The translations under genes were made by a program, and so were the position numbers. 64,000 nucleotides of DNA from an uncultured Candidatus Saccharibacteria bacterium (GTDB lineage: Bacteria > Patescibacteriota > Minisyncoccia > Phycocordibacterales > Phycocordibacteraceae). The DNA lies in contig CAYMNZ010000001.1 in the NCBI GenBank assembly GCA_964391975.1, forward strand, positions 418,064-482,063, given 5' to 3'. Below are positions 9,999 to 56,691 of the stretch, piece after piece. The notes under the pieces are model-generated. The model did no database searches. It had not been told where the DNA came from and was given only the letters and a program-made list of their open reading frames with translations. The stretch's first letter is position 1, and the number at the start of each line of letters is the position of its first letter.

Positions 9999-10880
9999 TT
10001 AGCTACGAGCCCCGATTTTGAGCTGGTCGGTGAGGAGCGCTACTCCCACCATTAGCGGAACGAGCGCGGAAAGCTGCCAAATAGTCGGGGTCTGAGCAAG
10101 GAGAACCCAAGCCGCAATAAGTGTTACCACTACTGCCCCACTCTCAAGAGAGAGCGCTTTAGTGACCGATATCCTTTTTATAGCCTCAAGAAAGAAGAGT
10201 TTAGAGAGTCCGAGTAAGAGGAGGCCGTTTACAAGGAGGAACGGAAGAGAGTCCTGAATCTGCGACCATGTCGCATGAGCACCTGTAAAGAACGCAAGCA
10301 AGAAAACGAATGGCACCGAGACAATGCTGCGCAGGCACATGACCGTCTCGCTTGATGCGAGTTGCACGGCCTTCTGGGAATAGTAGTTTCCGAACGGGGC
10401 AACGCATATCGCAAGCACGCACAGAAGGTCGCCGAGGTTCGGCGTCGATGCGTTCGGACCAAGAACGAGACCTGCACCAATTACCATGCAGATGGCACCG
10501 AGGATATGGGCGAATGGAATCTTTTCCTTACGAAATACATTGAAGTAAAGAAAAGAAGTAAACACCGTGAGCAGCATGATAAGTGCAGCATTCCCCGCTG
10601 TCGTAAAACGTAGAGCAGTGAAATAAAAGGAATAGAGGAGGATGCCGATGAAAAATGTAGCAAGTAACGTGTAGCGCAGGACGAGCGGTTTCTTCAGTTC
10701 ATGCCATTTCTTTCGTACGGTCACGAAAACCCCAAAGAAGAGTGCGGCGAACAAGGTGCTCCACCCAAGCGAAACAAGAGCAGGAATACTTGTATACGAA
10801 AGAACAGTGATAACTGGAAACAACCCCCACAAAAGAGTTTCTGCCAGACTATAGAGTTCTCCTTTCCGCTGCTCAGTCAT
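9999..10880 (-). CDS. DMT (EamA-like) superfamily transporter
   Basis: About 10 TM helices and a duplicated EamA-like topology. Confidence 0.65.
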   Translation of the reverse strand: MTEQRKGELYSLAETLLWGLFPVITVLSYTSIPALVSLGWSTLFAALFFGVFVTVRKKWHELKKPLVLRYTLLATFFIGILLYSFYFTALRFTTAGNAALIMLLTVFTSFLYFNVFRKEKIPFAHILGAICMVIGAGLVLGPNASTPNLGDLLCVLAICVAPFGNYYSQKAVQLASSETVMCLRSIVSVPFVFLLAFFTGAHATWSQIQDSLPFLLVNGLLLLGLSKLFFLEAIKRISVTKALSLESGAVVVTLIAAWVLLAQTPTIWQLSALVPLMVGVALLTDQLKIGARS

Positions 10881-12804: not shown

Positions 12805-13665
12805 CTATTTCCTTCGTGCAAGGTATTGAATGAAGAGACTCTTCTCTTTCTGTTCTTCAGCGAAGTCGTGATAGACGTGTTCTACCTCAAAGTCCTCGGA
12901 GAGAATATCGAGCATGTCCTTCTGGTAGATAGGATAAAGGTCGAGCTTTGACCATACCTTCGTCTCCTTGTCGTAATAGTGATTCACCACCACCGTCTCA
13001 CTGATATAGGCCGGGAACACGAGTACCTTCTCCTGGAAGCCGTGATAGTAGACCGTGTGGTCGAAGGTGAAGTTTTTGAATATCTCCTCCTTGGGAAGGT
13101 TCATGAGCGAGCGGATGTAGTCGTAGTTGCGTGAATCAAGGAACAGGTAACCTCCCTTCTCTATCATGCTCGCGAACTTATTCACGACGCTCTGCTGCGC
13201 CTTCTTAGTGTAGTCACGGGTTCCACCTCCGATATAGGTCAAAGAATTGCCAGTGAGGAAGCCGAAATCAAACTGGTGTGTGTAAGGCGGCGTGGCGCGC
13301 GGAAGGTCGAGCCAGTTTGCCTTATGAATCGGAATATTGAGACCCTCGCTCTTAAAATGTTCGGCGGCTAACCTAATAAACGTATCGTCCACTTCATTTG
13401 CCTCTGCAGTATCAAATGGATGGTTTTCGTTCTTCAGTCCCTTCACGATACCGGCAAGTTCAACACCACTGCCGACGCCTAGGTCGATAATGTTGCGAAG
13501 TCCACGCTCTTTGATGAGGTCGGTAAAGAACTTAATCTCCGATGCCTTCGTTCCACCCTTGAACTTAGGATAGATGCCGGATTCCCAGTCGACGAGTTTA
13601 TAGTCTCCGAATTCTTCAATCGGGTTACTAATGTACGGAAGCGTATTTACAAAAGAGTTCTCCAT
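12805..13665 (-). CDS. Class I SAM-dependent methyltransferase
   Basis: Motif I IIDLGVGSGVELAGIV; GC is somewhat lower than the flanks. Confidence 0.6.
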   Translation of the reverse strand: MENSFVNTLPYISNPIEEFGDYKLVDWESGIYPKFKGGTKASEIKFFTDLIKERGLRNIIDLGVGSGVELAGIVKGLKNENHPFDTAEANEVDDTFIRLAAEHFKSEGLNIPIHKANWLDLPRATPPYTHQFDFGFLTGNSLTYIGGGTRDYTKKAQQSVVNKFASMIEKGGYLFLDSRNYDYIRSLMNLPKEEIFKNFTFDHTVYYHGFQEKVLVFPAYISETVVVNHYYDKETKVWSKLDLYPIYQKDMLDILSEDFEVEHVYHDFAEEQKEKSLFIQYLARRK

Positions 13666-18069: not shown

Positions 18070-18921
18070 TTACATCAAGAGAAGACCCAGGAGGGCGACG
18101 ACGCTACCCGCTAGCTTGCGTTTGAAGTCTTCGCGCTCACCAAGGAACAGTGCACCCGCGAGGAAAATAATCACCACCTTAAAGGTAGTGACGGCAGAGA
18201 CGACGCTCAAGTTCGCTACTACGAAGAGCAGTATCACCCACGAGAATGCTTGAAGTGCACGGAGTATCCCCGTCACGCCGATGTCGATAGGAGTGTATTC
18301 GTTCTTCGTTTTCGTGAAGAGAACAAGAATGCCAAGGAAGATGGTCTGAGACCACCAACTAATAAGGGTGCCTAAGGTAAAGCCTGCCTCAAGCTGAAGC
18401 GCCCGTTCCGCAGCGATGCAGACACCAAGCATGGTCCCGCTCGCGAGCATCATAAGGAAGTACTTGTCGAACTTGAACCGGCCCACCCGGTGCTTCCTCG
18501 AGACGACGAGCATTCCCACAAGCAGCAGGGCCGTCCCCCCGATTTGCACCAGCGTTAGACTTTCATGGAGGAAAAGCGAGGCTAACACTATAGCCACCGG
18601 CGTATAGATGTTCATCACGATATTCGTGACGCCCGCCTCTACGTGCTTCTGAGCTATATAATTGGGTATATACAGCCCTCCACCGATGACCGCCGTAACC
18701 AAGCCTAGGAGAACGATGGTAAGTAGGTCGCCCTGGAACTTGATTGGCTCAATAAAGAGCAAGAACACGCCCGAGAGCGCGACGGTGAGCATCGCATAGA
18801 ACGCAAGGCGTATCTGGCCGTCGTTACTAACCTCCTGGTGCCGCTTCGCAAGCCACCTGCGCTGGAGTGGAGAAACGCTCGCAGCAACGAAGTAGAAGAG
18901 GTAGGCGAGAAGCTGAATCAT
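18070..18921 (-). CDS. DMT (EamA-like) superfamily transporter
   Basis: About 10 TM helices with two EamA-like halves. Confidence 0.65.
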   Translation of the reverse strand: MIQLLAYLFYFVAASVSPLQRRWLAKRHQEVSNDGQIRLAFYAMLTVALSGVFLLFIEPIKFQGDLLTIVLLGLVTAVIGGGLYIPNYIAQKHVEAGVTNIVMNIYTPVAIVLASLFLHESLTLVQIGGTALLLVGMLVVSRKHRVGRFKFDKYFLMMLASGTMLGVCIAAERALQLEAGFTLGTLISWWSQTIFLGILVLFTKTKNEYTPIDIGVTGILRALQAFSWVILLFVVANLSVVSAVTTFKVVIIFLAGALFLGEREDFKRKLAGSVVALLGLLLM

Positions 18922-19607
18922 AGTTCAGCAATGACAGAAATTGGTAGATGGTCCGAGCCCTTGGATTCCTCAACCTTAAAGGAGTGCGTCTTGATGTCTT
19001 TGGTCGTGAAAATGTAATCGAGCTTTGTATCGACTACTTGCGGATTGCACGTCTTACATCCATCAGGATAGACGCTCCACGTAGGTAGCGAGTCTGGGTC
19101 AGAGTCGACAAGAACAGACTTCATGCACCGTATAGCCTCACTGTCTGGGGTCGCATTGAAATCCCCCATGACGAGGGTGTTCTCTGCTGGAAGCGCGGAG
19201 AGGAGATTCTCTATTTGCTCCATCTGCACATCCGAATGTTCTTGGTGGGTATGGAGCGTGTGGACGCTAAACACGCGAAGTACTTTCTCCCCTACCTGCA
19301 GGTCTATGCGTACTGCACCTCGAGCATTCTCTTTTGAAAGCAAATAGGTTTCGCTCGATAAAATAGGCAACTTTGAGAAGAGCGCAGGGCCATCATTGAA
19401 AGTATTGTCTCCCCACTTCTTACGTGCTGGGAGGAAAATATGATGGTAGCCGCGTGAGGAGAGATACCCAATCACATCCCGCTCGGGGTCTGTATCCTTC
19501 ACTTCCTGCAGACCGATGATGTCTGGGTCTACTCGCTCAATGAGTGTCTTGTATTCTTCGAACTTACCTTCTATCCAAATGTTCCAAGAGAGAATCTTGA
19601 GTTGCAT
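18918..19607 (-). CDS. Endonuclease/exonuclease/phosphatase (EEP) family protein
   Basis: N-terminal LKILSWNIW...DPDIIGLQEV and C-terminal SDHLPI EEP motifs; lower GC than the flanks. Confidence 0.75.
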   Translation of the reverse strand: MQLKILSWNIWIEGKFEEYKTLIERVDPDIIGLQEVKDTDPERDVIGYLSSRGYHHIFLPARKKWGDNTFNDGPALFSKLPILSSETYLLSKENARGAVRIDLQVGEKVLRVFSVHTLHTHQEHSDVQMEQIENLLSALPAENTLVMGDFNATPDSEAIRCMKSVLVDSDPDSLPTWSVYPDGCKTCNPQVVDTKLDYIFTTKDIKTHSFKVEESKGSDHLPISVIAEL

Positions 19608-19609
19608 GG

Positions 19610-20254
19610 CTATTTAATGAGTGGAGCTATCTTCTCCCAAACCTTATCGCATATGAATTGATGCCCTGCCTGGTTGGGATGGAGACCATCTATGTAAAGG
19701 TACTTCTCCTTCCATTCGTCGGGGTCTACACCTAGTTCGATGAACGTCACTCCTACCTCCGCAGCGATGCCACGAAGGGCTTCATCAAAGAGCGCACGGC
19801 GTGCATTGGTGAAATACGATTTTCGATCGCTAAACGGACTTATCTTAGGATTAGTTTTTGATTCATCGACTGTTCCACTCCCCACGAAAAATACATGATC
19901 AACCTGCCTCTTGAGAGTGGTAAGAAAGATGGTCATCTCCTTCGTGTATTCCTCAACCGTCGACACGAAGTTAGCGGGGTCATTTTCCGCTTTAGCATTG
20001 TTACCGCCTATCGAGACGAGGGCGATAGTTAGGCCGTCCCTCTTGTACGCCTTCAGCTGTCCCTCAACTGTTTCCTGCGCAAAGGCAATCTTTGCTCCCG
20101 ACTTGCCAAAATTAAAGAGTTCCCATTTCTCTCCTCTTCCATTGACACCATAAAGCTCTCCGTGAAGACGGCACTTAAGAAGGTCAGCCCACCCTCCGTC
20201 TTTACCGCCAACACCGTATGCAGAACTCGAACCGAAGACGAATACCTGATTCAT
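19610..20254 (-). CDS. SGNH/GDSL hydrolase family protein
   Basis: N-terminal VFVFGSSSAYGVGG (GDS block) and C-terminal DGLHPN (catalytic D...H). Confidence 0.7.
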   Translation of the reverse strand: MNQVFVFGSSSAYGVGGKDGGWADLLKCRLHGELYGVNGRGEKWELFNFGKSGAKIAFAQETVEGQLKAYKRDGLTIALVSIGGNNAKAENDPANFVSTVEEYTKEMTIFLTTLKRQVDHVFFVGSGTVDESKTNPKISPFSDRKSYFTNARRALFDEALRGIAAEVGVTFIELGVDPDEWKEKYLYIDGLHPNQAGHQFICDKVWEKIAPLIK

Positions 20255-20263
20255 CCTCTTATA

Positions 20264-20998
20264 TTACCCCACACTATCTTTGAGCTGAGAGTGTATCTGG
20301 TCAGCTGAGTAATTTGGCTTCTCAGGCATATATCCAAGTATCTCCTTTGCCTTGGTTATATCGAGATGAGGTACGTCGTCTACGATGCTGAACGCCTCGT
20401 ACCAAAGTTCACCAGGGTATTCGAGCGCAAGCTTAATTGCTTGAGTGGCATTATTGATGCTGACACTAGTTCCGAGAAAAACCTTGTTAATCGGACCAAA
20501 ACGAAGTGCAATCGTTTGCACTTTCTTATTCAAGCCAAACCAAGCAGCAATCTGCTCAGCCATTACTTTACTGACATGATATGAAAGATCGACTTCTCGC
20601 ATAGAAAGCTGATCTGCCTTTAGGTACTGTGATACGAACGGCTGATTTTCAGTAATCGGCGTCTGAAACGGTATTCCCTTCTCGATACCGTAGATGGTAG
20701 TCGAGCTTGCGTAAATGACTCGACGTACGCCATGCTCATTTGCTGCGCGCAATACGTTGAGTGTTGACTCAACATTATTGGAGAAATATTCTGGGAAACT
20801 CTTTCCTTCGACAGGCTTAGGGATGGCGGCAAGGTGCACTACCTGTTCGCATCCCTTCATCTTTTCGCTTAGTGTTGCGTAATCAAGAAGGTTAAGACCA
20901 TCTTGAAGATCGTAGCCCACTATCTCGTAGTCGTTCCCGTAGCGTTGTATGAACTCGGTTCCTAAATACCCCTTATCCCCGGTAAGAAGGATTTTCAT
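20264..20998 (-). CDS. NAD-dependent epimerase/dehydratase (SDR) family protein
   Basis: MKILLTGDKGYLGTEF Rossmann motif and Y..xK; low GC. Confidence 0.75.
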   Translation of the reverse strand: MKILLTGDKGYLGTEFIQRYGNDYEIVGYDLQDGLNLLDYATLSEKMKGCEQVVHLAAIPKPVEGKSFPEYFSNNVESTLNVLRAANEHGVRRVIYASSTTIYGIEKGIPFQTPITENQPFVSQYLKADQLSMREVDLSYHVSKVMAEQIAAWFGLNKKVQTIALRFGPINKVFLGTSVSINNATQAIKLALEYPGELWYEAFSIVDDVPHLDITKAKEILGYMPEKPNYSADQIHSQLKDSVG

Positions 20999-51850: not shown

Positions 51851-54061
51851 TTATTTGGCGACCGTCATGGCCTCCTCGAATTTAACTGATAGAAGCTTCG
51901 ATATACCGTCGTTACCCATGGTGACCCCGTAGAGAATACCTGCGCGCGACATCGTCTCGCGGTTGTGCGTGATGACGACCAGCTGCGACTTCTTAGCGAG
52001 GCTCTCAATCATGTCGCCGTAGCGGCGAGAGTTGGCCTCGTCGAGTGCTGCATCCGTCTCATCGAGAATCAAGAATGGTGGCGGGTTCACCTGACTCATG
52101 GCAAAGATGAGCGCGATGGAGGTAAGTGCACGCTCGCCTCCGGAAAGCTGCATCAAAGACTGCACACGCTTCTTTGGGAGGCTCACTGAAATCTCAATAC
52201 CTGCCTTCTGCTGTTTCTTTGGTCCTTCTTCCTGCATCTCTTCCTCCTCGTCTTCTTCAGCGTCATCGAACTCTTCAAGCACGAGACGCGCGCTTCCTCC
52301 TCCGAACATGAGTGCAAAGAATTCACTGAACGATTCGTTCACCTTCTTAAGTCCCTCAGAGAAGGATTTTCCGAGTTCTTCATCAAGGTTGCCGATAAGT
52401 TCACGAAGTCCCTCTGCCGACTTCGCGAGGTCCTCAAGTTCACGAGCAAGAAATTGTTCGCGCTCGCTCGCCTCCTTAAACTCAGTGCGCACCTCCTCTC
52501 CAGTACCTCCCGCTTCTTCCACGCGAATCTTGAGGCGCTCCATCGTCTTCTTACGTTCCTCCTGCACCCGGCGCTCTTCCTCAGGAAGTCTGTCGAGCGG
52601 TGCATAGGAAAGCGCTGCGGCGCCCGCAAGCGCGAGCACCTCAGCACGATCGCGCTCAAGCTCATCAGCAAGCGACTGCAGTTCTCCTTGCCTGCTTTCC
52701 TCCCGCAGCACCGCTGCCTCTTCACGCGCCTTCGCTTCCGCCATATCGAGCACACGGAACTGATTCTCGCGCCCAGTCTCCTCGTGCACTGAGACTGCTT
52801 CGCGTGCTTTGACGAGCGCGTGGCGCGCCTTCTCAGAGGCTGCGGAGAGTTCCTGCTCTCGTGCGGCAAGACCTTTGCGCTCCTCCTCAAGTGTATAGAC
52901 CGCGCGCTCTTCTTCAGCTAGGTATTCGCTTTCTGGCGAGACGAAGCGGTCGAAGAAGGCAGCCACAGCGTTCTTAAGTGCAATGAGCGCAGCACGGAGC
53001 GCACTTGCGTCTGCTCCCTCAGCAACCGTTGCCTGTGCATCAAGCTCCTTCCGAAGTTCACCAAGCTGCTCGCGAGGAACCTTCACATACGGCTCTTCTT
53101 TTACCGCTTCCGCACGACGCTTCGCAGCCTCAAGTGCTCCTTCAACGCGACCCATCTCACGAGAAATAGTTCCCTGCTCGGCAAGCGCGCGGTCTACTTC
53201 GCGCTCTGCAGCACGCACGGCGTCTGCCCTCTTGAGTCCCTCAGTGTCGAGCGTCGCGCGGTCTTGAAGTGGAGCGAGTGCTGCAGTAGCAACCGCAAGA
53301 CGCTCTTTAGCATCTGAAAGGCGCGTGGTTGAAGCAGCCTTCTCACTTCTGACATAGAGTTCCTCGATGGCGAAGTACTCGCGACACGCATCGGTGAGCG
53401 ACTTGATGAGCTCCTCTGCACGCTCAAGCTTCTCTACCTGCTTGCCGAGGAACTTTAGGTGCGGAAGGATTTCACGACGCAGTGCCTCCACCTGCTTTAC
53501 GTTATCCTCGGTCTTCTCAAGCTTGCGTTCTGCCTCCTGTTTTTTGAACTCATAGACCTTGAGGCCAAGTGCGTCCTCGAGCATGGCGCGGCGCTCACGT
53601 GGGTGCGAGAGAAGAATGCGGTCTGCCTCACCTTGAGAAATGATGTGGTGCCCGGTGTCGCCAATGTTCGCGCTGGCGAGCAGTTCCTGCACATCACGGA
53701 GGCGTACCTTCGAGCCGTTGATTGAGTACTCACTCGCCCCATCACGGAAGACGGCACGCTCGATTGACACCTCCTCAAACTCACACTTCGGGAAGATGCG
53801 CTTCTTGTTATCAAATACGACCGACACCGACGCCCGGTTGGACCGTGGCGCAGTGTTAGAACCGCTCCAGATAAGGTCCTCGCTGCGCTTCCCGCGCATG
53901 CTCTTCATAGACTGCTCGCCAAGCGCGAAGCGGAAGGCTTCAGCAACGTTACTCTTTCCTGAGCCGTTAGGGCCCACAATGGAAGTTACGGACGACGAGA
54001 AATCAAGCGCGGTTTTCTTCGCGAATGATTTGAACCCCGCGATCTCAAGTCGCTTTAGCAT
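51851..54061 (-). CDS. smc: SMC-family ATPase lacking a hinge domain (short SMC, 736 aa)
   Basis: N-terminal Walker A GPNGSGKSN, long Glu/Arg/Ala coiled coil, C-terminal signature LSGGERALTSIAL and Walker B FLILDETDAALD. No Gly-rich hinge segment is visible. It sits immediately downstream of rnc. Confidence 0.75.
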   Translation of the reverse strand: MLKRLEIAGFKSFAKKTALDFSSSVTSIVGPNGSGKSNVAEAFRFALGEQSMKSMRGKRSEDLIWSGSNTAPRSNRASVSVVFDNKKRIFPKCEFEEVSIERAVFRDGASEYSINGSKVRLRDVQELLASANIGDTGHHIISQGEADRILLSHPRERRAMLEDALGLKVYEFKKQEAERKLEKTEDNVKQVEALRREILPHLKFLGKQVEKLERAEELIKSLTDACREYFAIEELYVRSEKAASTTRLSDAKERLAVATAALAPLQDRATLDTEGLKRADAVRAAEREVDRALAEQGTISREMGRVEGALEAAKRRAEAVKEEPYVKVPREQLGELRKELDAQATVAEGADASALRAALIALKNAVAAFFDRFVSPESEYLAEEERAVYTLEEERKGLAAREQELSAASEKARHALVKAREAVSVHEETGRENQFRVLDMAEAKAREEAAVLREESRQGELQSLADELERDRAEVLALAGAAALSYAPLDRLPEEERRVQEERKKTMERLKIRVEEAGGTGEEVRTEFKEASEREQFLARELEDLAKSAEGLRELIGNLDEELGKSFSEGLKKVNESFSEFFALMFGGGSARLVLEEFDDAEEDEEEEMQEEGPKKQQKAGIEISVSLPKKRVQSLMQLSGGERALTSIALIFAMSQVNPPPFLILDETDAALDEANSRRYGDMIESLAKKSQLVVITHNRETMSRAGILYGVTMGNDGISKLLSVKFEEAMTVAK

Positions 54062-54077
54062 TTAGAGCAATTATAAC

Positions 54078-54767
54078 CTACCAACCCTTCTTCTTGAGCC
54101 CGTTCCCAGCAGCATCCTGCTCCGCCTCTTGCTTGCTCTTCCCTTTCCCGCGTGCAACTTCCTCGTCTTTCACAAAGACGGCGACGGTGAAATGACGGTC
54201 GTGGTCAGGCCCCGTCTCATCAATGGTCTTGTAATGCGGGGTGGTTCCCTCCTTCTCCTGGGAAGCTTCTTGGAACTTGCTTTTGGCGTCCTGGTACGAG
54301 CGCTTCTCAAGCACGCTGTCGAGCTTCGGATAGAGGTGCTTCTCAAGGAACGTAACCGCGGTGTCGTAGCCCTGGTCCAAATACAAAGCACCGAGCAATG
54401 CCTCAAACGCATTGGCAAGAATAATCTGGCGTGCGCGTCCCGTATCGCGCTTCTCCCCTTTCGACAGAAGCAGCATGTCGTTCATACCAAGGCGCTCGGC
54501 AACCTCGGCAATCGAATAGGTGTTCACCAAAGCCGCGCGGTAGGCAGTGAGGTCGCCCTCTGGTTTCTGTGGGAACTTGTCATAGAGCATGCGCGTAGTC
54601 GCGAGCTCAAGCACCGCGTCACCAAGAAACTCAAGGCGCTCGTTGTGCGCTTTCGAACTCCGGTTTTCATTCAAATAGGAGCGGTGCGTCAACGCCTCCT
54701 CGAGGAGCTCGAGGTCTTTGAAGGTGAGCCCGAGCTTTTGGGCGGCTTCCGTGAAGTCCATACGCAA
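54078..54767 (-). CDS. rnc: Ribonuclease III
   Basis: Signature ERLEFLGDAVLEL and a C-terminal dsRBD. Confidence 0.92.
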   Translation of the reverse strand: MRMDFTEAAQKLGLTFKDLELLEEALTHRSYLNENRSSKAHNERLEFLGDAVLELATTRMLYDKFPQKPEGDLTAYRAALVNTYSIAEVAERLGMNDMLLLSKGEKRDTGRARQIILANAFEALLGALYLDQGYDTAVTFLEKHLYPKLDSVLEKRSYQDAKSKFQEASQEKEGTTPHYKTIDETGPDHDRHFTVAVFVKDEEVARGKGKSKQEAEQDAAGNGLKKKGW

Positions 54768-54823
54768 ACTATGCGGCAGGAGAAAGAAAAAAGAAAGTGT
54801 CGCTGTCTGGGACGATGTTGGAA

Positions 54824-55297
54824 CTACCTTAACTGACGGATATCCTCTAAATCGACTTCTCTTCCCAGTTTCGTCTTATAGGCGATGAGCGGCTCTTTTC
54901 TTAGAACCGGCACCATCAATCCTTCAAATTGTTTCGGTTCGAAATCCATGTCGGATGGTTGAAGCGTCCTTTCCCCTGTCTTTGAGATTATGTACACCTC
55001 TTCTACCTGATTAATGTCGATAGGCACACCGTCTATCTCTAACTTCATTATCCAAATATCGAACTGATCGTCAGGACCTTCCATATCGTTGTTCCAGTCT
55101 TCAGTTATGTAGTCTTCGAAGAGTGAGCGCACCGTTTCTACATCTCTTTTATGTATCTCCAGGTCAATATCGTAGAGAGAGCGATTAACACCATGAATAA
55201 TTGCAGCGAGTCCACCACTTACCTGAAACTCAATATTGTTCTTCTGTAACGTCTCAACGAGACGTTCGAGTACTTCCTTCTGGATTTCCGTTAGCAT
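54824..55297 (-). CDS. Small nucleotidyltransferase (Pol-beta superfamily; ANT(2'')/Lnu-like minimal NTase); markedly low GC
   Basis: GGLAAIIHGVNRSLYDIDLEI aligns with the GG..(x)..R..DIDL pattern of small antibiotic/substrate nucleotidyltransferases. I estimate gene GC at about 42% versus about 58% for the window. Confidence 0.6.
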   Translation of the reverse strand: MLTEIQKEVLERLVETLQKNNIEFQVSGGLAAIIHGVNRSLYDIDLEIHKRDVETVRSLFEDYITEDWNNDMEGPDDQFDIWIMKLEIDGVPIDINQVEEVYIISKTGERTLQPSDMDFEPKQFEGLMVPVLRKEPLIAYKTKLGREVDLEDIRQLR

Positions 55298-55342
55298 TAG
55301 CCTAATTAGACCATAGAAACCTGGCCGCCCAGGGTTCGAACC

Positions 55343-56242
55343 TTACTTCCCCGCCTTATCCAGCAGTTTCTGCACGGCAGCCGTCACAATAGGAAGCATG
55401 TCGTCGTAGAAGTTGAGCGCCCGGATATCTGGAAGCCTGAACCAGCGCGCATCATCAAGTCCCCCGCTCTGCTTGAGGTTGAGCTTCGCAAACTCTGCCT
55501 TCACAAGGAAGAAATAGACGTGCTTGCGAACCTTTCCCTTCTCGGGGTGTGAAGCGATGTACTCGTTCTCACCCACCATGTCTTCAATTGTTCCTTCAAG
55601 ACCAAGCTCTTCCTTCACCACACGAGCAACACCCTCCTCGGGAGTGGCGTCGTTCTCGATGTGCCCTTTAGAGAGCGTCCAGCGCCCGAAGACGTCATGG
55701 ACAAGCGCGACATAGTACTGAGTCTCATGCACCGCGTACACGATGGCGCCACCAAGCTTTTCCATTGGAAGCGTGCTGACATCCACGCGCTCCTTCTTCT
55801 TGCTGGTGTCTTCCTTGCCCGGCTCTCCCATCTCTTTGTAGACAGCGCCCAGCACTCCGTTGATGAAGCGTCCGGAAGAATCTCCGCCGAAAATCTTAGC
55901 GAGTTCAATCGCTTCGTTAATCGCAACCTTCGGCGGCACCTGCGCACGGTCAGCAAAAAGAAGCTCGTAGAGACCAAGTCTCAATATGTTGCGGTCTATC
56001 GGCGCGATGCGGTCGATGGGCCAGTCTGGTGCGGCTTTCTGTATGACAAGGTCGAGGTCATCGCGCTTGGCGAGTACACCCTCAAGGAGAGATTCCATAA
56101 ACTGGCCTTCCGTGTCGTCCCCGCCGAACTCGCGAGTGTTGCGGGCAAGGATGTCGGTGACGTCAGCATCGGCAACGTTGGCCGTATCCCACTCGAAGAG
56201 GGTCTGAAGGACGAGCGAACGCGCGAGATGCCGATTAGCCAT
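55343..56242 (-). CDS. nusB: Fusion protein: N-terminal NusB-family (transcription antitermination) domain plus C-terminal Nudix hydrolase domain
   Basis: The NusB core (ARSLVLQTLFEWD..., RIAPIDRNILRLGLYELLF...PPKVAINEAIELAKIFGGDSSGRFINGVLGAV) continues in the same ORF into a Nudix box GHIENDATPEEGVARVVKEELGLEG. Confidence 0.75.
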   Translation of the reverse strand: MANRHLARSLVLQTLFEWDTANVADADVTDILARNTREFGGDDTEGQFMESLLEGVLAKRDDLDLVIQKAAPDWPIDRIAPIDRNILRLGLYELLFADRAQVPPKVAINEAIELAKIFGGDSSGRFINGVLGAVYKEMGEPGKEDTSKKKERVDVSTLPMEKLGGAIVYAVHETQYYVALVHDVFGRWTLSKGHIENDATPEEGVARVVKEELGLEGTIEDMVGENEYIASHPEKGKVRKHVYFFLVKAEFAKLNLKQSGGLDDARWFRLPDIRALNFYDDMLPIVTAAVQKLLDKAGK

Positions 56243-56286
56243 ATATGGAAAGAACTATTCCAAGAATAGCACACGCCCCAGAGTGT

Positions 56287-56691
56287 CTAGCCCTCCTTGG
56301 GCTTGCCGTACTCAGTACCGATAATTGCGCGTATCCGCTTAAGCAACGCGAACACTTCCTTTCCAGTCTGGTACGCTTCCGTCGCATATCCTTTAGCGAC
56401 AAGCTGCTCAACCGCTTCCTCATAGGAACCGAAAAGAAGTTCTTCATACGTATCGAGGCCCGTAAGATTCCCGATAAGAAGTAGGCTCTTATATTTGCGA
56501 CCAAGGCGGTCTTTTACTTTTCCGATGTGGTTTGCATGCTGAAGCGCACCACTCTCCTGCCGCAGGTCCGCCTCTCGTAGTTGTACACCGAGCTGTTCGA
56601 GCTCCTCTTCAGCTCGGTCCACATACGCGGTGTGATCACGCATCATCTGCTCGATGCTTTCATGCCTCCTTCCTTCCGCGTCCATAGTCAA
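56287..56691 (-). CDS. Hypothetical protein (134 aa)
   Basis: ORF with a good start context; no motif. Confidence 0.45.
   Translation of the reverse strand: MTMDAEGRRHESIEQMMRDHTAYVDRAEEELEQLGVQLREADLRQESGALQHANHIGKVKDRLGRKYKSLLLIGNLTGLDTYEELLFGSYEEAVEQLVAKGYATEAYQTGKEVFALLKRIRAIIGTEYGKPKEG

Follow-up and report, generated by a model that had tools for sequence, protein, structure and literature searches.

A probable repeat-bounded single-gene cassette with a PF10706 nucleotidyltransferase between the nusB-nudix and rnc genes of an uncultured member of the Patescibacteria

How does a lone accessory gene of low GC content come to lie within an otherwise conserved cluster of housekeeping genes, and what does it encode? 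The question is raised by a nucleotidyltransferase gene situated between nusB-nudix and rnc in a 64-kb stretch of contig CAYMNZ010000001.1 (positions 418,064 to 482,063, assembly GCA_964391975.1; hereafter the window) from an uncultured Candidatus Saccharibacteria bacterium, the host genome being one of the Paceibacteria (Patescibacteria/CPR). Comparison of this reference stretch with other loci, designated here by L-numbers such as L010 and L011, strongly supports the horizontal acquisition of the gene, and the insert is very probably a repeat-bounded single-gene cassette carrying a nucleotidyltransferase of the Pfam family PF10706. The blended explanation developed below, in which origin, boundaries and cargo are considered together, has in our estimate a probability of about 0.6. 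The context outweighs the enzyme, as a pair of apparently tRNA-Gln-derived repeats brackets interchangeable genes inside otherwise invariant housekeeping clusters.

The interval 54768-55342 is the entire space between the NusB-Nudix and rnc genes and contains one intact open reading frame (ORF) with an ATG start and a TAG stop. The surrounding gene run, all of it on the reverse strand, reads rnhB-L32-x-nusB/nudix-(nucleotidyltransferase)-rnc-smc-GFA-gdh, and Pfam confirms the neighbours as RNase III, SMC and NusB+NUDIX, in agreement with an earlier note on this DNA that had described a 157-aa gene wedged between rnc-smc and NusB-Nudix. The G+C content (GC) of the ORF is 43.0% (43% over its first 100 nt) as compared with 54.3% window-wide, which corresponds to z = -4.06 against a background of all 474-nt windows across the 64 kb, only 0.09% of which are equally low; the window-wide minimum of 42.4% falls within the gene. 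The low-GC islet of the earlier note is therefore real, and its estimate of 58-60% for the neighbouring genes was correct in direction but slightly too high, with rnc and smc at 56.4-56.5%. No paralogue of the gene occurs within the window.

A resident housekeeping gene could in principle show such a deficit through amino-acid composition only, and this explanation is consistent with the very low GC at second codon positions (25% as compared with 35-44% in the neighbours) and with homologues elsewhere that still lie 0-6 points under the GC of their flanks. However, GC at third codon positions (GC3) is also depressed, at 48% relative to 56-72% in nine neighbouring genes, and the deficit is therefore not a matter of amino-acid composition alone. 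The comparison of related loci is more decisive. NusB-Nudix relatives were collected as 330 stretches in one-genome-per-species contigs and 80 loci were compared, at none of which the nucleotidyltransferase gene was detected by tblastn. The rnc and NusB-Nudix genes were both present in 78 of the 80, with rnc directly after nusB-nudix in every one of these 78 and a junction shorter than 130 nt in 63. Two close relatives are especially informative: L011 (96% identical in amino acids, 84-85% in the nucleotides of the flanking genes) has an empty junction of 22 nt (L011:5900-5921), and L010 (97% and 86-88.5%, respectively) carries 586 nt of inserted DNA, equal in size to the insert of the window but with unrelated content, its cargo being a hydrophobic 157-aa ORF of 45% GC that represents an unrelated membrane-protein gene. 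The C-terminus of NusB-Nudix is unaltered by the insertion.

Homologues of the nucleotidyltransferase were located in seven unrelated, non-syntenic contexts. Elsewhere the GC of homologue and host is closely matched (43.5/43.9, 41.6/44.0, 52.3/55.4 and 55.1/57.9), and homologues in GC-rich hosts reach a GC3 of 61-71%; the corresponding values in the window are 43.0/55.5. Because homologues elsewhere follow the GC of their hosts and the window copy does not, a recent donor of approximately 43-44% GC is indicated. The horizontal acquisition proposed in the earlier note is upheld by these empty or differently filled sites, non-syntenic homologues and host-matching compositions, and the opposite possibility of a housekeeping family universally present at this locus is contradicted by the absence of the gene from 80 of 80 relatives. 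The comparative data have already refuted a resident gene, an explanation to which we leave next to no probability. No phage carrier was identified by a viral-contig scan or by tblastn against 50,697 phage records.

How the insert is delimited provides the second line of evidence (Table 1). The left repeat begins directly after the NusB-Nudix stop codon and, judged by alignment, would be a copy of the T arm and acceptor 3' end of tRNA-Gln, while the right repeat, a 29-nt motif with the consensus GGTTCCAACATCGTCCCAGACnGCCAGC, overlaps the TAG stop of the nucleotidyltransferase gene and would be a variant of the same sequence; both align with the tRNA-Gln 3' end, giving the insert the flanks of a tRNA-repeat-bounded element. 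The earlier note had recognized a flanking inverted repeat here, and two small palindromes do exist (CCTGG-CCGC-CCAGG at 55320-55333 and GGTTCGAACC at 55333-55342), but the sequence more plausibly represents one of a pair of direct repeats that resemble tRNA-Gln. A homologous left site, GGTTCGAATCCCAGTCTGTCAGC, occupies the corresponding position in L010, which shares with the window the left flank GGTTCGAA(C/T)CC...CAG right after the stop codon, and the same type of left site follows the rnc stop in L012 and L013. The 29-nt motif, present as a single copy in the window by nhmmer, follows the differing cargo in L010 and every cassette in L012 and L013. To the right, a 63-nt flank beginning GTTCCAACATCGTCCCAGACAG is identical at 55 of 63 positions between the window and L010 (a hand count from the alignment) despite the different cargo, and over the final ~19 nt it can be loosely aligned with the empty junction of L011 (22 nt). 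Since this flank has diverged as much as the genes around it, the slot predates the split between the window and L010, and the cargo was swapped later. Rfam gave no match in 53500-56500 at E <= 5.

Table 1. Features of the nusB-nudix/rnc junction, with coordinates in the window.
Feature	Coordinates	Strand	Description
rnc (RNase III), conserved downstream flank	54078..54761	-	core gene outside the insert; Pfam Ribonuclease_3 + dsrm
Pyrimidine-rich spacer	54762..54797	-	with rnc-proximal -10-like GCATAGT; upstream of the rnc start
Right (downstream) boundary repeat, 29-nt motif	54798..54826	-	reads TAGTTCCAACATCGTCCCAGACAGCGACA; nhmmer 54826-54800, 30 bits
Nucleotidyltransferase, cargo gene of the putative cassette	54824..55297	-	157 aa; PF10706, TM1012-like, stand-alone
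Leader between left repeat and ATG, cassette-borne	55298..55319	-	-10-like GGTCTAAT (55305-55312)
Left (upstream) boundary repeat	55320..55342	-	reads GGTTCGAACCCTGGGCGGCCAGG; like the tRNA-Gln T arm + acceptor 3' end
NusB-Nudix fusion gene, conserved upstream flank	55343..56242	-	core gene outside the insert; 299 aa; Pfam NusB + NUDIX

A metagenome assembly as source and the abrupt step in GC might together suggest a chimeric islet, assembled or binned from foreign reads. The same gene with the same junctions, however, is found on 18 contigs, four of them shown as four places in four samples (three Joint Genome Institute (JGI) assemblies and a Logan assembly made from one public sequencing run), so the islet is no assembly artefact; the flanking repeats are, moreover, common to the independently assembled L010. 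We give this possibility practically no weight.

The leader that precedes the nucleotidyltransferase gene contains a -10-like element 7 nt before the ATG, and GGTATA(C/G)T recurs at the same spacing before the start in the L011 junction and in the L010 and L012/L013 cassettes. A consensus scan found no full sigma-70 match within the leader, and we regard the element as a candidate promoter. More generally, GGTATA(C/G)T is located approximately 7 nt before many ATGs with no obvious Shine-Dalgarno sequence, including the L012/L013:5901-5921 junctions, a placement that suggests very short leaders. By a crude count, a TAYANT box lies at -6 to -10 upstream of 13 of 55 window genes, and because this signal is weak no genome-wide promoter claim is made. 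The 29-nt motif was also considered as a fixed -35 element and rejected, because its spacing from -10-like boxes and start codons ranges between 17 and 60 nt.

In remoter Paceibacteria, throughout a wide range of which the NusB-NUDIX fusion upstream of rnc is conserved, insertions recur at the nusB-nudix/rnc and rnc/smc junctions with cargo that differs each time (inserts at L017:5888-6925, L018:5888-7447 and L022:5888-6789; rnc-smc gaps of L012-L016, L021 and L025). The L018 cargo is a 420-aa reverse-strand ORF, and the insert itself is T-loop-like at its left end (GGATTCGAGTTCC...) and carries a degenerate form of the motif on the right (GGTTCCAACAGCGTCC).

The distribution of the motif beyond this junction was assessed with the exact 15-mer GTTCCAACATCGTCC, which retrieved 120 metagenomic stretches with 139 exact sites, and each site was scored at 10 specified positions flanking the 15-mer (CAGACnnCCAGC). 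The distribution of mismatches at these positions is bimodal, with at least 37 copies in 27 metagenomic loci at no more than two mismatches and a chance group at 6-9, figures that carry the ascertainment bias of an exact seed as regards motif conservation. Loci with good copies span 28-63% GC. Among the strong copies, 35 of 38 are intergenic, mostly 0-4 nt past a co-directional stop codon, and they lie 17-60 nt ahead of the next start. Arrays of three to seven copies are found in L111, L103, L200, L161 and L119, and in L012 and L013, 85% relatives that are also close to one another, an array between rnc and smc has the motif after each gene with contents that differ between the two loci. The GC of the cargo is below that of the core genes in three of three neighbouring arrays.

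The L012 and L013 arrays (L012:6646-9625 and L013:6646-9237) contain five genes each and share just one, the small gene at the end (105-110 aa). Among the L012 genes are a VanX-type D-Ala-D-Ala dipeptidase and another nucleotidyltransferase, unrelated to that of the window (PF01909-type, 227 aa); those of L013 include an HAD hydrolase and an ion-channel protein.

The association of these arrays with tRNA-Gln is consistent. When 24 loci were scanned, the tRNA beside an array was tRNA-Gln in six of six cases, always upstream and in the same orientation, and its 3' end (cTAGGTTCGATCCCTAGTCTCCCAGC) aligns with the motif, in which the 'T-loop' is 5-6 nt longer. In L200 the first motif copy is a hybrid that bears the 3' variant of the resident tRNA. 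Arrays that lack a tRNA begin instead at a fragment of 23-24 nt from the tRNA-Gln 3' end, joined to a core gene at its stop codon; this gene is nusB-nudix in the window and L010, rnc in L012 and L013, ung in L103, and other genes in L144, L161, L176 and L205. Partial duplicates of the 3' part of tRNA-Gln occur 15-100 nt downstream of an intact tRNA-Gln at L097:7773-7943, L119:1795-1907 and L150:888-1039 and look like footprints of integration events; the L097 duplicate covers about two-thirds of the tRNA, and the L119 fragment belongs to the other tRNA-Gln isoacceptor. The overall layout is a core gene or tRNA-Gln, a tRNA-like first site, cargo, the 29-nt motif, and further units of cargo plus motif. 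Housekeeping genes flank the arrays, with dnaX and an M10 peptidase ahead of tRNA-Gln in three loci. A census of 45 cassette ORFs identified GNAT, NUDIX, HAD, VanX-type M15 peptidase, 2H phosphoesterase, SET, Trp-repressor-like, ion-channel and YbjQ proteins, a second nucleotidyltransferase, small membrane proteins and domains of unknown function (DUFs), and no recombinase among them.

A phage attachment site (attP) for the motif was sought on viral contigs and the candidates were rejected, their 15-mer or 18-mer matches being chance singletons or lying inside a C5-methyltransferase gene. The latter is an exact 22-24-nt match (GGTTCCAACATCGTCCCAGACAGC) in a C5-cytosine DNA methyltransferase gene of high-GC (0.62-0.70) phage contigs, at L228:5202-6461 (reverse strand) and in approximately 35 related IMG/VR contigs (L222-L292), antisense to VWDDVGT and just upstream of the PCQ motif. 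With a rough chance estimate of p ~ 0.005-0.05, it is probably a coincidence.

What process could have produced this arrangement? We propose that a single-gene mobile cassette was inserted exactly past the NusB-Nudix stop codon, ~20-60 nt upstream of rnc, and that such cassettes would enter and leave by recombination at the boundary repeats. The agent might be a recombinase encoded in trans that uses the tRNA-Gln-like sequences as site-specific attachment (att) sites and, like that of integrons, adds new cassettes at the first site, or the exchange could be homologous and proceed through the conserved repeats. The combination of a tRNA-like first site, cassette-type sites and the hybrid first copy of L200 is what integration at a first site by a site-specific recombinase is expected to leave. 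That the boundary repeats are recombination sites at all is, in our judgement, an even call. More tentative, and short of even odds, is the proposal that Paceibacteria and other Patescibacteria carry an undescribed integron-like system of miniature cassettes, with sites derived from the tRNA-Gln 3' end and a recombinase in trans, under which the islet in the window would be one cassette caught in a housekeeping gene cluster.

Several observations weigh against a dedicated recombination system. The empty site of L011 is without an att-like copy, the window has only one cassette and, by ARAGORN, no tRNA gene, and neither an excised form nor a recombination junction was observed. No integrase or transposase was found within approximately 6 kb of any array among the 25 of 32 flank families listed. 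The motif regions fold no better than shuffled sequence (z +0.5 to +1.8), and the motif, being unstructured, is therefore not attC-like. Homologues of the nucleotidyltransferase elsewhere mostly have no flanking motif; only in L212 does a degenerate copy stand beside one, at the start of an array.

Some of these features would equally suit a motif that acts as a regulatory or RNA-level element, in 3'-untranslated regions, termination or processing, with the turnover of cargo left to ordinary homologous recombination. Its placement just past stop codons and ahead of the next start, the A-rich tract and terminator-like hairpin that often come after it, its unstructured and C/A-rich character, and the lack of a nearby recombinase are all consistent with such a role, as is the similar divergence of the window and L010 in the repeat flank (55/63 identical) and the flanking genes (86-88.5%), which fits an old slot with later replacement of its cargo. 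An ordinary regulatory element, however, would not be expected to be so rare (one copy per 64 kb) and confined to variable cargo rather than ordinary operons, to be recognisably derived from the 3' end of tRNA-Gln, or to keep its sequence in hosts of 28-63% GC. The arrays, moreover, begin at tRNA-Gln genes or 3' fragments, partial duplications included, which is the classical footprint of site-specific integration. We consider the regulatory reading, the main alternative, the less likely of the two and retain recombination at the boundary repeats as the working explanation.

Comparison with known systems places the arrays between two classes of element. As in integrons, single and mostly co-directional accessory genes (0.35-1.3 kb) are separated by a repeated site, the tandem arrays vary between close relatives and have a distinct first site followed by cassette-type sites, and the cargo is similar (GNAT, NUDIX, nucleotidyltransferases, VanX-type peptidase and proteins of no known kind); distant homologues of the window enzyme are, in addition, bona fide integron cassettes in Vibrio. 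In contrast to the integron attC, an imperfect palindrome of 55-140 nt with RYYYAAC/GTTRRRY ends, the repeat here is linear, unstructured and 29 nt long, with no GTTRRRY partner found, is conserved across very different hosts and appears to derive from the tRNA-Gln 3' end; no integrase adjoins the first site, and the cassettes seemingly carry their own -10-like elements. The window insert thus has neither an attC hairpin with R''/R' nor an intI beside the first site, the two marks of an integron cassette.

The second class comprises tRNA-targeting elements such as the tycheposons of Prochlorococcus, which build islands by successive integration and leave partial-tRNA repeats (bioRxiv 10.1101/2020.12.28.424599). 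Those islands likewise show insertion by a tRNA gene, partial-tRNA direct repeats and older insertions pushed outward, and their hosts likewise have streamlined genomes with few classical mobile elements. The units described here differ in being single genes with neither an integrase nor a replication module, in having the repeat also after the stops of protein genes where no tRNA is present, as in the window, and in the longer 'T-loop' of the internal repeat, which is no copy of a tRNA. The window insert has no full-length target tRNA at one end and encodes no integrase. Rfam searches of five array loci returned no matches except genuine tRNAs. In the open-access literature we found no earlier account of the motif sequence, of integrons in the Candidate Phyla Radiation or of partial-tRNA islands in Patescibacteria, and a dedicated study of horizontal gene transfer in Patescibacteria makes no mention of tRNA, integrase, cassette or direct repeat.

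The cargo itself is a new peripheral member of a known enzyme family. The window protein matches PF10706 ('Aminoglyc_resit') over its full length (profile positions 2-149 of 149; 31.7 bits, E = 2e-7; gathering threshold 21 bits), and 48 of 55 family members match the profile as well; because TM1012 and ANT(2'')-Ia reach 117.5 and 69.8 bits on the same profile, its position is peripheral. The GG..G..R..DIDL motif reported in the earlier note is present at residues 28-48 (GGLAAIIHGVNRSLYDIDLEI), and across 55 aligned homologues there is no variation at G28, G29, L41, D43, I44, D45, D52, D94, K141 or D152, which by residue conservation amounts to a complete Pol-beta-type catalytic signature of hGG, DxD, a third Asp and a conserved C-terminal Lys/Asp. 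In an AlphaFold2 model with a predicted local distance difference test (pLDDT) score of 95.2, D43 and D45 are on or beside strand 44-48 and D94 is on strand 91-97. Motif, DxD, third carboxylate and alpha-beta core together place the protein in the Pol-beta-fold nucleotidyltransferase superfamily, so that its description as a minimal member of that superfamily was accurate.

Homologues of the enzyme are numerous and poor in names. The 81 recovered are nearly all metagenomic and 155-165 aa in length, the closest being 79-80% identical, and the few with a named source are mostly from Paceibacteria/Parcubacteria, together with one labelled Rectinemataceae. An exhaustive profile search gave 1619 cluster representatives at E <= 1e-3 and 406 at <= 1e-10, nearly all of them single-domain proteins of ~160 aa. 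A PHROG of function unknown, the sole link to phages, matches the window protein at 1.9e-7, and no relevant NCBIfam model, no PADLOC model and, in the Pfam scan, no match to PF01909 was obtained.

The closeness of the enzyme to antibiotic-modifying transferases is more qualified. The kinship with ANT(2'') enzymes proposed in the earlier note is right at the Pfam level, since PF10706 holds both TM1012 and ANT(2'')-Ia, but it does not extend to direct similarity: hhalign against ANT(2'')-Ia, with the AadB sequence checked against PDB 4WQK, aligned the N-terminal 64 columns only, at 20% identity and a probability of 5%; the family profile searched against PDB sequences did not retrieve the ANT(2'') chains at E <= 10; and LnuA was a weak and insignificant match at E = 0.16. 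Neither a full-length sequence relation nor a curated resistance model assigns the protein to the ANT(2'')-Ia functional class. The nearest solved relative is TM1012 of Thermotoga maritima (PDB 2EWR/2FCL/4HX0; function unknown), which has the same G-G/S...DxD motif and ~20% identity, gives a fold match that carries no information on activity, and over residues 13-155 is less acidic (isoelectric point (pI) 5.7 as compared with 4.4). LnuA (PDB 4FO1, 4WH5) is likewise a small (~160 aa) stand-alone nucleotidyltransferase, 18% identical to the window protein. The resemblance to ANT(2'')-Ia (PDB 4WQK, 4XJE, 5CFS) extends beyond PF10706 and the N-terminal catalytic motif to similar size and near-identical charge (pI 4.44 and net charge -16 in the window protein, 4.49 and -16 in ANT(2'')-Ia), and both are stand-alone, single-gene cargo of mobile cassettes; aadB is an integron cassette.

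What might the enzyme do? It would catalyze the transfer of a nucleotidyl, probably adenylyl, group dependent on a nucleoside triphosphate to a hydroxyl by a two-metal mechanism, and its most likely acceptor would be a small, probably cationic molecule in a detoxification or resistance-type reaction, as for ANT(2'')-Ia and LnuA. The chance that the acceptor is a small molecule we place at even or slightly below, and such an acceptor is favoured over RNA because the family is strongly acidic throughout (median pI 4.5) and has no antitoxin partner. No gene neighbour is common to its seven genomic contexts, the gene always standing alone, and several homologues lie among small 'detoxification-type' genes (GNAT, metallo-beta-lactamase fold, HAD, a VOC-type protein and an ABC exporter). 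Distant homologues with 28-35% identity are carried by large replicons of Vibrio, Photobacterium and Pseudoalteromonas; one of them, 32% identical, is situated between 127-nt attC/Vibrio cholerae repeat (VCR)-like repeats of an integron-type array on the Vibrio alginolyticus plasmid NZ_CP099958.1 (L293:3986-4468). This homologue is annotated as a 'MazG-related protein', a label that looks wrong for a PF10706-type fold, and the array also holds an IS110-family transposase.

Structure tempers this assignment. The C-terminal half of the model, with four short strands and two helices, is TM1012-like, and the TM-score is 0.80 to TM1012 and ~0.6 to ANT(2''). LnuA, the MenT1 toxin and ANT(2'')-Ia are structural neighbours at equal distance, so that no antibiotic substrate is demonstrated and a tRNA-modifying toxin is as near as both antibiotic transferases; no close relative has a known substrate, and TM1012 is itself uncharacterised. 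These points all count against a resistance-type function, and the antibiotic-modifying or toxin-like activity suggested in the earlier note was not substantiated: 'antibiotic-modifying' is a reasonable hypothesis, short of a finding.

The proximity of MenT1 raises the alternative of a MenT/AbiEii-like nucleotidyltransferase that blocks tRNA acceptor ends within a toxin-antitoxin or abortive-infection system. A weak profile match to the AbiEii/AbiGii-family chain 8an4 (E = 0.15) points in this direction, as do the homologues found in defence-rich islands with Mrr, an AcrVA2-like protein, a DUF4011 helicase and IS1595. However, MenT1 (Rv0078A) and the AbiEii/DUF1814 toxins differ from the window protein, which has no cognate antitoxin, is acidic and matches neither a PADLOC model nor Pfam DUF1814, so that the relation is one of fold similarity only. 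No antitoxin-like gene adjoins it in the window, where it stands between nusB-nudix and rnc, no neighbour is kept across the seven contexts, the acidity of the whole family is unusual for an RNA-binding toxin, and a single-gene cassette free of antitoxin would kill its host. Nor was there a HEPN or other partner, as the earlier note had thought worth seeking, beside the window gene or in six other contexts, which leaves the gene outside the MNT-HEPN pairs. A toxin is in our view improbable, the remaining probability falls to acceptors of other kinds, and a small-molecule acceptor is the assignment we carry forward.

Other low-GC stretches were observed in the window. A second block at 18918-20998 (reverse strand) has 44-47% GC in 474-nt windows and three co-directional genes, identified by eye as an endonuclease/exonuclease/phosphatase-family protein (229 aa), an SGNH/GDSL-type hydrolase (214 aa) and an NAD-dependent epimerase (244 aa); it adjoins an ABC-2 permease, lacks the 29-nt motif and could be a further acquisition. 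Dips to 46-47% GC coincide with a 286-aa methyltransferase-like ORF at 12805-13665 and a 293-aa EamA-type membrane protein at 9999-10880, both on the reverse strand and likewise identified by eye.

Taken alone, the enzyme is a modest result, an uncharacterised member, from an uncultivated and ultra-small bacterium, of a small family that groups two antibiotic-modifying enzymes of clinical relevance with a tRNA toxin. The wider interest lies in its setting. Patescibacteria have tiny genomes with few recognisable mobile elements, yet much gene exchange (PMC12455944), and the gain and loss of their accessory genes are poorly understood; the repeat-bounded slot represents a specific candidate mechanism that can be searched for. 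With the 29-nt motif, the mobile genes of these bacteria could be inventoried, the recombinase sought by co-occurrence and excised cassettes detected in long-read data.

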